DNA from: a virus
Lineage: Duplodnaviria > Heunggongvirae > Uroviricota > Caudoviricetes
Strand: one strand, 5' to 3'
Length of the DNA: 8,047 nucleotides
Virus record (IMG/VR): IMGVR_UViG_2531839580_000015
The notes beneath the pieces were generated by a model that was not told where the DNA came from, did not search any database, and saw only the letters and a list, made by a program, of their open reading frames with translations. Made by a program: the position numbers and the translations under genes. Of the stretch, positions 1-7,800 are shown in pieces; within the stretch, counting starts at the first letter, position 1; the number at the start of each line of letters is the position of its first letter.

Positions 1-136
1 ACAACTGAGTAAACGAGAGAGGTATACCGACAAATGGCAGCGACGCACACACTCCCTCTGGCGTCACCGGGAATGGCACGCATCTGCCTTTACGGGGATT
101 TGCAACGATTTGGCCGCCGCATCGACCTTCGTGTGA
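1..136 (+). CDS. K: 3' end of tail assembly protein K homolog (partial, 5' truncated by window start)
   Basis: The frame using positions 2,5,8... is open from the window edge to TGA at 134-136 (44 codons). It overlaps the ATG of the downstream I gene (34) by 103 nt in a different frame, which is the K/I overlap I recall for phage lambda. The fragment is too short for me to confirm by sequence recall. Confidence 0.5.
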   Translation, partial: QLSKRERYTDKWQRRTHSLWRHREWHASAFTGICNDLAAASTFV

Positions 137-675
137 AAACGGGGGCCGAAGCCATCCGGGCGCTGGCCATGCAGATCCCGGCGTTTCGTCAGAAGCTGAG
201 CGACGGCTGGTATCAGGTACGCATTGCCGGGCGTGATGCAGGTAAAACCGAATTGTCTGCCCGTCTTAATGAGCCGCTGGAAAATGGTGCCGTGATCCAT
301 ATCGTGCCGCGTCTGGCAGGAGCCAAAAGTGGCGGTGTGTTTCAGGCTGTGCTGGGGGCGGCTGTTATGGCGGTTGCTATATGGATGCCGGGGGTAGGAA
401 TTATGGCGAGTAATCTGCTGTTTTCTCTCGGTGCCAGTATGGTGCTCGGTGGTGTGGCGCAGATGCTGGCACCGAAAGCCAGAACTCCCCGTACACAGAC
501 AACGGATAACGGCAAACAGAACACCTATTTCTCCTCACTGGATAACATGGTTGCCCAGGGCAATGTTCTGCCTGTTCTGTACGGTGAAATGCGCGTGGGG
601 TCACGTGTGGTTTCTCAGGAGATCAGCACGGCAGACGAAGGGGATGGTGGTCAGGTTGTGGTGATTGGTCGCTGA
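34..675 (+). CDS. I: Tail assembly protein I (lambda gpI family), 213 aa, apparently intact
   Basis: ATG at 34 preceded by GAGAGG at 17-22. The translation (MAATHTLPLASPGMARICLYGDLQRFGRRIDLRVKTGAEAIRALA...VVSQEISTADEGDGGQVVVIGR) matches lambda gpI at both ends, with a shorter, divergent hydrophobic Gly/Ala-rich centre. It sits 60 nt upstream of J, as in lambda. Confidence 0.9.
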   Translation: MAATHTLPLASPGMARICLYGDLQRFGRRIDLRVKTGAEAIRALAMQIPAFRQKLSDGWYQVRIAGRDAGKTELSARLNEPLENGAVIHIVPRLAGAKSGGVFQAVLGAAVMAVAIWMPGVGIMASNLLFSLGASMVLGGVAQMLAPKARTPRTQTTDNGKQNTYFSSLDNMVAQGNVLPVLYGEMRVGSRVVSQEISTADEGDGGQVVVIGR

Positions 676-693
676 TGCAAAATGTTTTATGTG

Positions 694-721
694 AAACCGC
701 CTCCGGGCGGTTTTGTCGTTT
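694..721 (+). terminator. I-J intergenic stem-loop with T tract (possible attenuator or mRNA structure in the late operon)
   Basis: AAACCGCC (694-701) and GGCGGTTT (706-713) form a perfect 8-bp inverted repeat around a 4-nt loop TCCG, followed by a T-rich tract TTTTGTCGTTT. It lies in the 60-nt gap between the I stop and the J start. Confidence 0.4.
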
Positions 722-735
722 ATGGAGCATGACGA

Positions 736-3700
736 ATGGGTAAAGGCAGCAGTAAGGGGCATACCCCGCGCGAAGCAAAGGACAACCTGAAGTCCACGCA
801 GTTGCTGAGTGTGATCGATGCCATCAGCGAAGGGCCGGTTGAAGGTCCGGTGGATGGATTAAAAAGCGTGCTGCTGAACAGTACACCGGTGCTGGACAGT
901 GAGGGGAATACTAACATCTCTGGTGTCACGGTGGTGTTCCGGGCAGGTGAGCAGGAACAGACACCGCCGGAGGGATTTGAATCATCAGGTTCCGAGACGG
1001 TACTGGGTACGGAAGTGAAATACGACACGCCGATTACCCGGACCATCACGTCGGCAAACATCGACCGTCTGCGCTTTACCTTCGGTGTGCAGGCACTGGT
1101 GGAAACCACCTCAAAGGGGGACCGGAATCCGTCGGAAGTCGCCTGCTGGTTCAGATACACGTAAGGTGGCTGGGTGACGGAAAAAGACATCACCATTAAG
1201 GGCAAAACCACTCCAGTATCTGGCCTCGGTGGTGGTGGATAACCTGCCGCCGCGCCCGTTTAATATCCGGATGCGCAGATGACGCCGGACAGCACCACAG
1301 ACCAGCTGCAGAACAAAACGCTCTGGTCGTCATACACCGAAATATCGATGTGAAACAGTGCTACCCGAACACGGCACTGGTCGGCGTGCAGGTGGACTCG
1401 GAGCAGTTCGGCAGCCAGCAGGTGAGCCGTAATTATCATCTGCGCGGGCGTATTCTGCAGGTGCCGTCGAACTATAACCCGCAGACGCGGCAATACAGCG
1501 GTATCTGGGACGGAACGTTTAAGCCAGCATACAGCAACAACATGGCCTGGTGTCTGTGGGATATGCTGACCCATCCGCGCTACGGCATGGGGAAACGTCT
1601 TGGTGCGGCAGATGTGGATAAATGGGCGCTGTATGTCATCGGCCAGTACTGCGACCAGTCGGTGCCGGACGGTTTTGGCGGCACGGAGCCGCGCATCACC
1701 TGTAATGCCTACCTGACCACGCAGCGTAAGGCGTGGGATGTGCTCAGTGATTTCTGCTCGGCGATGCGCTGTATGCCGGTATGGAACGGGCAGACGCTGA
1801 CGTTCGTGCAGGACCGACCATCAGATAAGGTGTGGACCTATAACCGCAGTAATGTGGTGATGCCGGATGATGGCGCGCCGTTCCGCTACAGCTTCAGCGC
1901 CCTGAAGGACCGCCATAATGCCGTTGAGGTGAACTGGATTGACCCGAACAACGGCTGGGAGACGGCGACAGAGCTTGTTGAAGATACGCAGGCCATTGCC
2001 CGTTACGGTCGTAACGTCACGAAGATGGATGCCTTTGGCTGTACCAGCCGGGGGCAGGCACACCGCGCCGGGCTGTGGCTGATTAAAACGGAACTGCTGG
2101 AAACGCAGACCGTGGACTTCAGCGTGGGTGCGAAGGGCTTCGCCATGTACCGGGGATGTCATTGAAATCTGCGATGATGACTATGCGGTATCGCACCGGG
2201 GGCGCGTGCTGGCGGTGAACAGCCAGACCCGGACGCTGACGCTCGACCGTGAAATCACGCTGCCATCTCCGGACCACGCTGATAAGCCTGGTTGACGGAG
2301 GGATCCGGTCAGCGTGGAGGTCAGTCCGTCACCGACGGCGTGAAGGTAAAGTGAGCCGTGTTCCTGACGGCGTTGCGATACAGCGTTGGGGGCTGAAGCT
2401 GCCGACGTGCGCCAGCGCCTGTTCCGCTGCGTGAGTATCCGTGAGAACGAGACGGCACGTATGCCATCACCGCCGTGCAGCATGTACCGGAAAAAGAGCC
2501 ATCGTGGATAACGGGGCGCACTTTGACGGCGACCAGAGCGGCACGGTGAATGGTGTCACGCCGCCGCGTGCAGCACTGACGCGAAGTCACCGCAGACAGC
2601 GGGGATATCAGGTCTGGCCGCTGGGAACGCCGAAGGTGGTGAAGGGCGTGAGTTCATGCTTCGCCTGACCGTGGCAGCGGATGACGGCAGTGAGCGGCTG
2701 GTCAGCACGGCCCGGACGACGGAAACCACTTACCGCTTCACACAACTGGCGCTGGGGAACTACAGGCTGACAGTCCGGGCAGTAAATGCGTGGGGGCAGC
2801 AGGGCGATCCGGCATCGGTATCGTTCCGGATTGCCGCACCGGCAGCGCCGTCGCAGATTGAGCTGACACCGGGGTATTTTCAGATAACCGCCACGCCGCA
2901 TCTTGCGGTTTATGACCCGACGGTACAGTTTGAGTTCTGGTTCTCGGAAAAGCGGATTGCGGATATCAGGCAGGTTGAAACCGCAGCCCGCTATCTTGGC
3001 TCGGCGCTGTACTGGATAGCTGCCAGTATCAATATCAAACCGGGCCATGATTATTACTTTTATATCCGCAGTGTGAACACCGTTGGCAAATCGGCATTCG
3101 TGGAGGCCGTCGGTCGGGCGAGCGATGATGCGGAAGGTTACCTGGATTTTTTCAAAGGCAAGATAACCGAATCCCATCTCGGCAAGGAGCTGCTGGAAAA
3201 AGTCGAGCTGACGGAGGATAACGCCAGCAGACTGGAGGAGTTTTCGAAAGAGTGGAAGGACGCCAACGATAAGTGGAATGCCATGTGGGCTGTCAAAATT
3301 GAGCAGACCAAAGACGGCAAACATTATGTCGCGGGTATTGGCCTCAGCATGGAGGACACGGAAGAAGGCAAGCTGAGCCAGTTCCTGGTTGCCGCTAACC
3401 GTATCGCGTTTATTGATCCGTCTAATGGCAACACAAGACCAATGTTTGTTGGTCAGGGCGATCAGATATTCATGAACGACGTGTTCCTGAAACGCCTGAC
3501 GGCTCCGACCATTACCAGCGGCGGTAATCCTCCGGCATTTTCCCTGACACCGGACGGGCGGCTGACGGCGAAAAATGCCGATATCAGCGGTAACGTGAAT
3601 GCGAACTCCGGGACGCTCAACAACGTCACGATTAACGAGAACTGTCGGGTTCTGGGAAAACTGTCCGCCAACCAGATTGAAGGCGATCTCGTTAAAACAG

Positions 3701-4095
3701 TGGGCAAAGCTTTCCCCCGGGACTCCCGTGCACCGGAACGGTGGCCATCAGGGACCATCACCGTCAGGGTTTATGACGATCAGCCGTTTGACCGGCAGAT
3801 TGTTATTCCGGCGGTGGCATTCAGCGGCGCTAAACATGAGAGGGAGAATAACGATATTTATTCGTCATGCCGCCTGATAGTACGGAAAAACGGTGCTGAA
3901 ATTTATAACCGTACCGCGCTGGATAATACGCTGATTTACAGTGGTGTTATTGATATGCCAGCTGGTCGCGGCCACATGACGCTGGAGTTTTCGGTGTCAT
4001 CATGGCTGGTAAATGACTGGTATCCCACAGCAAGTATCAGCGATTTGCTGGTTGTGGTGATGAAGAAAGCCACCGCAGGCATCAGTATCAGCTGA
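736..4095 (+). pseudogene. J: Tail tip host-specificity protein J (lambda gpJ family); reading frame broken into at least five segments
   Basis: ATG at 736 with GGAG at 724-727. The N-terminus MGKGSSKGHTPREAKDNLKSTQLLSVIDAISEGP... matches lambda J. The homologous reading continues through 736-1164, short pieces in alternating frames across 1165-1350 (in-frame TAA at 1162-1164, stops at 1240-1242, 1280-1282 and 1351-1353), 1350-2165, 2249-2434 and 2441-2668, then 2656-4095, which ends ...[10 protein letters not shown] with stop TGA at 4093-4095. Total span is 3360 nt against 3399 nt for lambda J. J-like peptides ([47 protein letters not shown]) are recoverable from different frames in 2165-2660. 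Confidence 0.85.
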
Positions 4096-4114
4096 ATTTT
4101 ATAACCCATATACG

Positions 4115-4138
4115 GGCGCCAGAAATGGCGCCTTTTTT
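4115..4138 (+). terminator. Rho-independent terminator downstream of J
   Basis: GGCGCC (4115-4120) and GGCGCC (4127-4132) form a 6-bp GC-only stem around the loop AGAAAT, immediately followed by TTTTTT (4133-4138). It starts 20 nt after the J stop. Confidence 0.7.
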
Positions 4139-4162
4139 ATTGCAGAAAAGCGAGAGGTAATT

Positions 4163-4759
4163 ATGCGTAAAGTTTGTGCAGCCATTTTGTCCGCAGCCAT
4201 CTGTCTGGCCGTATCCGGTGCGCCTGCATGGGCGTCTGAGCAGCAGGCCACACTGAGCGCAGGGTATCTTCATGCCCGTACGAACGCTCCCGGCAGCGAT
4301 AATCTGAACGGGATTAACGTGAAATACCGTTATGAGTTTACGGACACGCTGGGGCTGATTACGTCATTCAGTTATGCCAACGCTGAGATGAGCAAAAAAC
4401 GCATTACAGCGATACCCGCTGGCATGAGATTCCGTGCGTAACCGCTGGTTCAGCGTGATGGCGGGCCGTCTGTGCGCGTGAATGAATGGTTCAGCGCGTA
4501 TGCGATGGCGGGTGTGGCTTACAGCCGTGTGTCGACTTTCTCCGGGGATTATCTTCGCGTAACTGACAACAAGGGGAAAAAGCACGATGTGCTGACCGGA
4601 AGTGATGACGGTCGCCACAGCAACACGTCTCTGGCGTGGGGGGCTGGCGTGCAGTTTAACCCGACCGAATCCGTGGCCATTGATATTGCTTATGAAGGCT
4701 CCGGCAGTGGTGACTGGCGCACTGACGGTTTCATCGTGGGTGTCGGTTATAAATTCTGA
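4163..4759 (+). pseudogene. lom: Lom outer-membrane protein (Ail/Lom/OmpX/PagC beta-barrel family), prophage moron; frame interrupted mid-gene
   Basis: ATG at 4163 preceded by GAGAGG. The N-terminus MRKVCAAILSAAICLAVSGAPAWA is a typical signal peptide, and SEQQATLSAGYLHARTNAPGSDNLNGINVKYRYEFTDTLG... matches lambda Lom, as does the C-terminus ...AIDIAYEGSGSGDWRTDGFIVGVGYKF (stop TGA 4757-4759). Between about 4386 and 4462 the Lom-like reading moves through all three frames: DEQKTHYSDTRWHE in one, DSVRNRWFSVMA in another, then back to GPSVRVNEW. This leaves an in-frame TAA at 4439-4441. If the three shifts are sequencing errors the gene is intact. Confidence 0.8.
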
Positions 4760-4785
4760 TTAGCCAGGTAACACAGTGTTATGAC

Positions 4786-4812
4786 AGCCCGCCGGTTCAG
4801 GCGGGCTTTTTT
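4786..4812 (+). terminator. Rho-independent terminator downstream of lom
   Basis: AGCCCGCC (4786-4793) and GGCGGGCT (4800-4807) form a perfect 8-bp stem around the loop GGTTCA, running into TTTTTT (4807-4812). It lies between the lom stop and the stf start. Confidence 0.7.
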
Positions 4813-4823
4813 GTGGGGTGAAT

Positions 4824-7800
4824 ATGGCAGTAAAGATTTCAGGTGTACTGAAAGACGGCACAGGAAAACCGGTACAGAACTGCACAATCCAGCTGAAAGC
4901 AAAACGTAACAGCACCACGGTGGTGGTGAACACGCTGGCCTCAGAAAATCCGGATGAAGCCGGGCGTTACAGTATGGACGTTGAGTACGGTCAGTACAGC
5001 GTTATTCTGTTGGTGGAAGGATTCCCGCCGTCACATGCCGGGACCATCACCGTGTATGAAGATTCCCGACCCGGTACGCTGAATGATTTTCTCGGTGCCA
5101 TGACGGAGGATGATGCCCGTCCGGAGGCACTGCGCCGTTTTGAGCTGATGGTGGAAGAGGTGGCGCGTAACGCGTCCGTGGTGGCACAGAACACGGCAGC
5201 CGCAAAGAAGTCAGCCAGTGATGCCGGCACATCTGCCAGTGAGGCGGCAACCCATGCGACTGATGCTGCAGGCTCAGCACGCGCAGCCAGCACGTCAGCC
5301 GGACAGGCCGCGTCGTCGGCTCAGTCAGCATCTTCCAGCGCAGGAACGGCATCAACAAAGGCCAGTGAAGCATCGAAAAGTGCTGCTGCTGCAGAGTCCT
5401 CAAAAAGCGCGGCAGCTACCAGTGCCGCTGCGGCGAAAACGTCAGAAACGAATGCGGCAGCGTCACAACAATCAGCAGCCACTTCTGCATCCGCCGCGAC
5501 CACGAAGGCGTCAGAAGCAGCCACCTCAGCCCGGGATGCGGCGGCCTCAAAAGAGGCAGCGAAATCATCAGAAACGAACGCATCATCAAGCGCCAGTAGT
5601 GCCGCTTCCTCGGCAACGGCGGCAGGAAATTCCGCGAAGGCGGCAAAAACGTCCGAGACGAACGCCAGGTCTTCTGAAACGGCAGCGGGACAGAGTGCCT
5701 CAGCTGCGGCAGGCTCAAAAACAGCGGCTGCATCATCTGCCAGTGCCGCATCAACAAGTGCCGGGCAGGCCTCAGCCAGTGCCACCGCTGCCGGAAAGTC
5801 GGCAGAAAGTGCCGCATCGTCTGCTTCAACAGCCACAACGAAGGCTGGCGAAGCCACTGAACAGGCCAGCGCAGCAGCGAGGTCAGCTTCCGCAGCGAAG
5901 ACATCCGAAACGAACGCGAAAGCGTCGGAAACCCGTGCAGAATCCTCAAAAACGGCTGCCGCATCGTCAGCCAGTTCGGCGGCGTCATCGGCATCATCGG
6001 CGTCTGCTTCAAAAGATGAGGCGACCATACAGGCGTCAGCAGCGAAGGGCAGCGCCACGACGGCATCCACGAAGGCGACAGAGGCTGCTGGTAGTGCGAC
6101 GGCAGCAGCTCAGAGCAAAAGTACGGCGGAATCTGCAGCAACGCGCGCTGAGACAGCGGCAAAACGGGCAGAGGATATTGCATCCGCCGTGGCGCTTGAG
6201 GATGCGAGCACGACGAAAAAGGGGATAGTACAGCTCAGTAGTGCGACTAACAGCACGTCTGAAACGCTGGCGGCAACGCCAAAGGCAGTAAAATCAGCCT
6301 ATGACAATGCAGAGAAACGTCTGCAGAAAGACCAGAACGGCGCTGATATACCCGATAAGGGACGCTTCCTGAACAACATTAACGCGGTCAGTAAAACAGA
6401 CTTTGCTGATAAGCGTGGTATGCGTTATGTGCGGGTTAACGCTCCTGCAGGTGCAACATCTGGAAAATATTACCCTGTTGTTGTTATGCGTTCTGCTGGC
6501 TCAGTAAGCGAACTGGCATCAAGGGTCATTATCACCACGGCAACGCGAACCGCAGGCGATCCGATGAATAACTGCGAGTTTAACGGATTTGTTATGCCTG
6601 GTGGCTGGACTGACAGGGGGCGTTATGCTTATGGAATGTTCTGGCAATATCAAAACAATGAACGAGCCATCCACTCAATAATGATGAGTAATAAGGGCGA
6701 TGATTTGCGCTCTGTGTTCTATGTTGATGGCGCTGCTTTCCCTGTTTTTGCGTTTATCGAAGATGGCCTGTCAATATCCGCACCTGGTGCTGATCTCGTT
6801 GTTAATGATACGACCTATAAGTTTGGGGCAACAAATCCGGCGACTGAATGTATCGCGGCGGACGTTATCCTTGATTTTAAGAGTGGGCGTGGTTTTTATG
6901 AGTCTCATTCGTTAATCGTTAACGATAACTTGTCGTGCAAAAAACTTTTTGCCACAGACGAAATTGTAGCGCGTGGTGGTAATCAGATTCGAATGATAGG
7001 TGGGGAGTATGGGGCATTATGGCGTAATGATGGCGCTAAAACTTACCTGCTGCTTACCAATCAAGGTGATGTTTATGGTGGCTGGAATACATTAAGACCG
7101 TTTGCTATTGATAACGCAACCGGCGAACTGGTTATTGGAACCAAACTGTCTGCAAGTCTGAACGGTAACGCATTGACAGCAACAAAGCTGCAAACGCCAA
7201 GACGGGTTTCTGGGATTGAGTTTGATGGTTCCAGAGATATTACTTTAACCGCCGCGCATGTGGCTGCTTTTGCCAGAAGGGCAACGGATACATATGCCGA
7301 TGCGGATGGTGGCGTTCCCTGGAATGCCGAATCAGGCGCTTATAATGTCACCCGCTCTGGCGACAGCTATATTCTGGTTAACTTCTATACCGGAGTCGGA
7401 AGTTGCCGGACCTTGCAGATGAAGGCACATTACAGAAATGGAGGTCTGTTCTACCGTTCCTCAAGAGATGGCTATGGTTTTGAGGAAGACTGGGCAGAAG
7501 TTTATACCTCGAAAAATCTTCCACCAGAAAGCTACCCAGTCGGCGCACCAATCCCGTGGCCATCAGATACCGTTCCGTCTGGTTATGCCCTGATGCAGGG
7601 GCAGACTTTTAACAAATCTGCCTACCCGAAACTTGCAGCCGCTTATCCGTCAGGCGTGATCCCTGATATGCGTGGCTGGACGATTAAGGGCAAGCCCGCC
7701 AGTGGTCGTGCCGTATTGTCTCAGGAACAGGACGGCATAAAATCGCATACCCACAGCGCCAGCGCATCCAGTACTGATTTGGGGACGAAAACCACATCGT

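Follow-up and report, generated by a model that had tools for sequence, protein, structure and literature searches.

The window analysed here, 8,047 nucleotides in length, corresponds by exact protein match to the complete 8047-bp contig AQBV01000091.1 of the E. coli p0305293.12 assembly (GCA_000358595.2). Open reading frames (ORFs), matches to annotated phages and prophages, and Pfam domains showed that it is filled by a lambda-type tail-tip region comprising the 3' end of K, gene I, gene J, lom, and the start of stf (Table 1). At the DNA level, the J sequence of the window was about 94–95% identical to J of phages, and identity to E. coli prophage J reached 97%. The Pfam domains detected across its fragments followed the order found in lambda J, namely FNIII-A_GpJ, Phage-tail_3, Ig_J, Ig_J_second, Phage_Tail_Tip, and Ig_GpJ_C. 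As assembled, both J and lom were interrupted, with two patches of missing bases in J and one in lom. The long J-frame ORFs reported in the first-pass annotation of this DNA (736–1164, 1350–2165, and 2656–4095) were all present.

Table 1. Genes and deletion patches in the window.
Feature	Position	Strand	Remarks
Tail assembly gene I	34..675	+	Intact, 213 aa; Pfam Lambda_tail_I, ORF, annotated neighbours
Gene J (tail-tip / host specificity protein), as assembled	736..4095	+	ORFs, Pfam
J pieces, five called ORFs	736-1164, 1350-2165, 2128-2295, 2504-2668, 2656-4095	+	
Deletion patch 1	1138..1343	+	7 single-base losses; switch from L001-like to L004-like allele
Deletion patch 2	2131..2652	+	29 missing bases, about 27 events
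lom (Ail/Lom outer-membrane protein)	4163..4759	+	Split: ORFs 4163-4441 (92 aa) and 4472-4759 (95 aa)
Deletion patch 3, inside lom	4385..4465	+	3 single-base losses
stf (side tail fibre gene), N-terminal 1075 codons	4824..8047	+	Open at contig end

The stf part of the window aligned to the references with zero indels. Within it, the stretch 5200–6400 showed an AT skew of 0.34–0.41 at about 60% GC, and stf contained long antisense or out-of-frame ORFs at 5218–6228 (plus strand), 5321–6070 (minus strand), and 5416–6183 (minus strand). The called gene at 5321–6058, an ORF found on AQBV01000091.1 only, is probably spurious. Upstream of J, gene I is otherwise highly conserved; a search of about 15 billion proteins found a sequence identical to the window I on AQBV01000091.1 only, and the window I may itself be a chimera or carry a consensus error. 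An antisense ORF at 4760–4933 was very widespread and served as a source of additional J alleles for comparison.

We aligned the window globally to five references, consisting of four E. coli prophage loci and lambda. The results showed that 39 bases present in every reference were absent from the window, 36 in J and 3 in lom, while no insertion was found relative to all five references in this alignment (39 deletions against 0 insertions, sign test p = 4e-12). Nearly every loss was a single-base event, with the exception of one cluster. The losses of patch 1 were located at about 1138, 1159, 1164, 1210, 1213, 1278, and 1343. Those of lom were located at about 4385, 4427, and 4465 and amounted to a net 3 nt, hence the frame was regained; in the references, lom encodes one 199-aa Lom. 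J spanned 3360 nt in the window, compared with 3399 nt in lambda and 3396 nt in the nearest E. coli prophage alleles, giving a deficit of 39 nt and 36 nt, respectively, the former being the net loss against lambda that had been reported previously. When the 36 bases were put back, J became a single 1131-aa ORF without an internal stop. Relative to the best local reference, patch 1 matched at 301 of 308 positions and patch 2 (best local reference L004) at 601 of 630, with 0 substitutions in either case. An example of a deletion-spanning k-mer from the window consensus is GGTTGACGGAGGGATCCGGTCAGCGTGGAGGTCAGTCCGTC.

All 36 J deletions fell within 728 of the 3396 nt, an arrangement with a probability of about 1e-24 under uniformity for patch limits that were chosen post hoc. 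The first-pass annotation had likewise described two short patches of frame changes in J with clean stretches between them. Both patches were real, but the numbers of breaks given for them ("at least three" and "several") were too low, as 7 and 29 bases, respectively, are missing. Patch 2 also begins at 2131 and not at 2165, with the ORF reading through the first shifts to the stop at 2165, and the third patch, in lom, falls outside the interval 1138–2660 to which the breaks had been assigned.

We then used two of the J copies carried by the finished genome of ETEC strain 602354 (Bangladesh), L001 and L004, as proxies for the co-resident J alleles. Of the L001/L004 SNP columns, 6 of 8 were deleted in patch 1 and 18 of 23 in patch 2; for the remaining columns the counts were 1 of 220 and 11 of 542 (Fisher p = 1e-9 for patch 1 and 3e-22 for patch 2). 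Pooling both J patches gave 24 of 31 SNP columns versus 12 of 762 others. Most J deletions (29/36) lay no more than 1 nt from an L001/L004 SNP. When 15 alleles were compared, variation was seen at 31 of the 39 deleted columns, and the other eight adjoined variable columns in small clusters; all three lom deletions were at allele-variable columns. These results show that the J deletions track sites differing between J alleles, not homopolymers, and that the patches keep the bases common to both copies and drop the ones that distinguish them.

The allele followed by the window also changed along the contig. Up to 1123, the window was identical to L001 at 91 of 93 informative sites, and from 1388 to 2117 it was identical to L004 at 22 of 24. 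Between 2655 and 3021 it was mostly L004-like, between 3057 and 3559 it matched L001 (122 sites), and between 3669 and 4176 it matched L004 again. Patch 1 coincided exactly with the changeover from L001 to L004. AQBV01000091.1 is best read as an allele chimera, and the repaired 1131-aa J may itself be absent from the strain. J is a multi-copy gene, with a median of 3 matching places per E. coli genome and 4 in strain 602354.

We searched 5426 finished E. coli genomes, which contained 10,352 J matches, and each patch was also searched alone. Across these genomes, the best match to patch 2 reached 95.4% and did so with 0 of the 29 deletions; the best full-length match to patch 1 reached 97.7% with 0 of the 7 deletions. 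No appreciable subset of the deletions was found in any of the 5426 genomes. The source of the window was not found among the finished E. coli genomes, where the best match was 97%. A 41-mer spanning four deleted bases was absent from GTDB species representatives and JGI metagenomes, and in IMG/VR it occurred only in L006, a contig of E. coli P0304777.13 from the same sequencing project. A second deletion pattern, represented by an 81-mer, gave no match in IMG/VR.

The window was next compared with contigs of related isolates. L006 and L008, the latter an 86-kb contig of the clonal sibling P0304777.7, carry the same prophage, and J and lom were also in pieces in L008. Many deletions were common to L006 and L008, yet each had 15 private one-base J deletions. 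Fourteen bases (2131 and 2199–2386) were missing in the window, L006, and L008 alike, and L006 and L008 come from another patient. A further contig, L020 (AQBY01000093.1, whose locus 1–3981 corresponds to window 1291–5249), has an exact frameshifted Lom fragment in common with the window and is apparently a sibling assembly of p0305293. Over window positions 3022–4912, L020 was identical to the window apart from 8 extra one-base lom deletions (4474, 4555–4570), and it also carried the three lom deletions of the window. L020 had all 29 of the patch 2 bases as well as base 1343, and its J formed an uninterrupted 944-codon ORF. It carried the other allele at 45 sites, indicating a lineage with at least two J copies; as the intact J of L020 partly agrees with that other allele, L020 and the window may represent separate J copies. 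The frameshift-specific ORFs of the window were found on AQBV01000091.1 only, except for the 55-aa ORF at 2128–2295, which was also found in p0305293.7. Such partly reproducible, partly random damage among clonal isolates fits assembly noise and not inheritance. We read the recurrent deletions as the outcome of one pipeline handling one allele pair repeatedly, with inheritance as the alternative reading.

Two further features of the P0304777 prophage were recorded. Its I and J genes are separated by an AT-rich insert of about 440 nt (L008 4146–4623; L006 about 3472–3912, minus strand). The insert holds an ORF (L008 4219–4557) for a protein of 112 aa that bears a lipoprotein-like signal (MNKTILFCTIIALTGC...). 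This protein matched phrog_914, of unknown function (E = 7e-33), and had no Pfam match; the ORF looks like a moron gene. In addition, L006 and L008 each lack 7 nt at the equivalent of window positions 3720–3726 and 5 nt at that of 3746–3750, all of which are present in every reference; the net loss of 12 nt is in frame and may reflect either an allele difference or a further artefact.

Real pseudogenisation, in which a decaying prophage has acquired genuine frameshift deletions in J and lom, would agree with the disruption of both genes, as in cryptic prophages, and with the recurrence of some deletions in the assemblies of other isolates. However, it would need 39 independent one-base deletions, accompanied relative to the best references by no insertion, larger indel, nonsense change, or substitution. 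These deletions would have had to occur at about 5% per base, in three patches, and at inter-allele SNP sites (p as low as that for patch 2 above). The 15 + 15 deletions by which clonal isolates differ and the absence of the deletions from the finished genomes also argue against this explanation, and we know of no mutational process aimed at paralogue-differing sites. Pseudogenisation is therefore very unlikely. Real decay was one of the two alternatives put forward in the first-pass annotation, and it fared poorly; the evidence favours the other, in which confusion among near-identical J copies of several prophages had led to local errors in the consensus.

The P0305293 and P0304777 isolates, all ETEC, came from cases of cholera-like diarrhoea seen in Dhaka during 2011 and were sequenced at GSCID (PMC4309559). 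The project used Illumina HiSeq2000 paired-end sequencing at >200x and the Celera Assembler, and the populations were clonal in all subjects but P0299917 and P0299438 (PMC4462620). From the strain naming, the GSCID statement (PMC4309559), and the presence of subject P030477 in PMC4462620, we strongly infer that these methods apply to p0305293.12. Since Illumina reads are indel-poor and coverage exceeded 200x, a local deletion rate of 5% would have arisen in consensus building, not in the reads.

This bears on whether the breaks could be platform-type errors, that is, homopolymer or low-coverage indels (454, Ion Torrent, or long reads) that survived polishing. Every event being a single-base deletion, the commonest residual error on such platforms, would suit this explanation, as would the homopolymer contexts that the first-pass annotation had given for several breaks. 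The run lengths did not support those contexts: 22 of the 39 lost bases stood alone (run length 1), 16 came from two-base runs and 1 from a three-base run, and longer runs contributed none. Losses in runs of 2 or more (17/39) were not enriched over the background of 41% (p = 0.75). Platform error would also leave the coincidence with allele-variable sites unaccounted for, and the project used the Illumina platform. We regard it as still less probable than pseudogenisation, and a polishing origin, which had been suggested earlier, is not upheld for a fault lying in consensus building.

The least probable explanation, biological removal of the mismatched base at heteroduplex mismatches between recombining J genes of co-resident prophages, would place deletions at inter-copy SNPs and patch 1 at an allele switch resembling a recombination joint, but mismatch repair converts to one allele, no repair outcome that deletes a heteroduplex mismatch base is known to us, deletion sets were discordant between clonal isolates, and finished genomes rich in mosaic J genes never showed such deletions. 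There is a very slight chance, comparable to that of platform error, that the deletions are real through heteroduplex excision or, in a milder form, that only the 14-base subset at 2131–2386, found in four assemblies that represent two patients, marks a genuine J allele with frameshifts that circulates in Dhaka ETEC. DGR-type mutagenesis and programmed frameshifting were also considered and rejected: bases of all four kinds were lost, no substitution was present, and there were 34 frame shifts.

Instead, the J and lom breaks are very probably a collapsed-repeat consensus artefact of a draft assembly and not mutations. On this explanation, the strain would carry at least two lambdoid prophages with J genes about 96–97% identical. 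The Celera Assembler may have built an 8-kb repeat contig from pieces of different prophage copies. Where pieces of two copies were overlaid, the consensus would have kept the common bases and put a gap at most disagreements, leaving one-base deletions spaced like inter-copy SNPs. The likely site of overlay is the overlap joining consecutive unitigs, so that the patch lengths (about 206, 522, and 80 bp) would be those of the unitig overlaps; outside the overlaps, the consensus would follow either copy and give a chimera. The density of L001/L004 SNPs was about 3–4% in the patches as well as across the clean interval 1351–2124. SNP density was thus rejected as the cause of patch location, as the proxy alleles are about equally divergent between and inside the patches, and patch location would be set by the layout of the pieces rather than by divergence. 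The assembler step in this scheme is itself a proposal, and a point against it is that a simple majority vote picks one allele, not a gap. The artefact explanation draws on the deletion-only pattern, the allele-variable sites, the allele switching, the discordance between clonal isolates, the absence from finished genomes, and the platform and assembler used. The real J and lom of the strain are most likely intact.

The biological weight of the breaks is accordingly small, and their main consequence concerns databases. J and lom were fragmented in four assemblies of the roughly 200-genome ETEC project (AQBV01, AQBY01, AQAQ01, and the P0304777.13 contig in IMG/VR), which suggests a project-wide artefact. 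Spurious proteins have been seeded in databases, including ENG45175–ENG45181 ('host specificity J domain protein'), ENE59928-9, ENF02529-33, and split Lom entries. Pseudogene tallies, estimates of pan-genome size, and calls of 'prophage decay' would all be raised by the artefact. Deletion-only patches at paralogue-differing sites, flanked by allele switches, could be used as an automatic flag.

The locus resembles that of lambda J (gpJ / TipJ) in its I-J-lom-stf order and in the length of the repaired protein (1131 aa versus 1132 aa), whereas the deposited gene lies in five called ORFs and appears to be a chimera of two alleles. The interrupted frame also recalls J genes that have truly decayed in cryptic lambdoid prophages. 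Real decay, however, involves IS insertions, large deletions, and mixed indels and substitutions that are common to clonal relatives, and such marks are absent in the window. The closest likeness is to the collapsed-repeat or mixed-haplotype artefact of overlap-layout-consensus assemblers, with which the locus has in common a multi-copy sequence, a short repeat-bounded contig, and allele switching. A Celera Assembler consensus of mixed alleles can yield a sequence present in no read, and more than two alleles per site have been taken as the mark of a collapsed repeat (PMC1964779). The documented artefact is a mosaic of substitutions, whereas the disagreement here would have been emitted as a gap and so have left one-base deletions. 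As in a collapsed-repeat artefact, the errors in the window are confined to sites that differ between copies and are irreproducible between assemblies.
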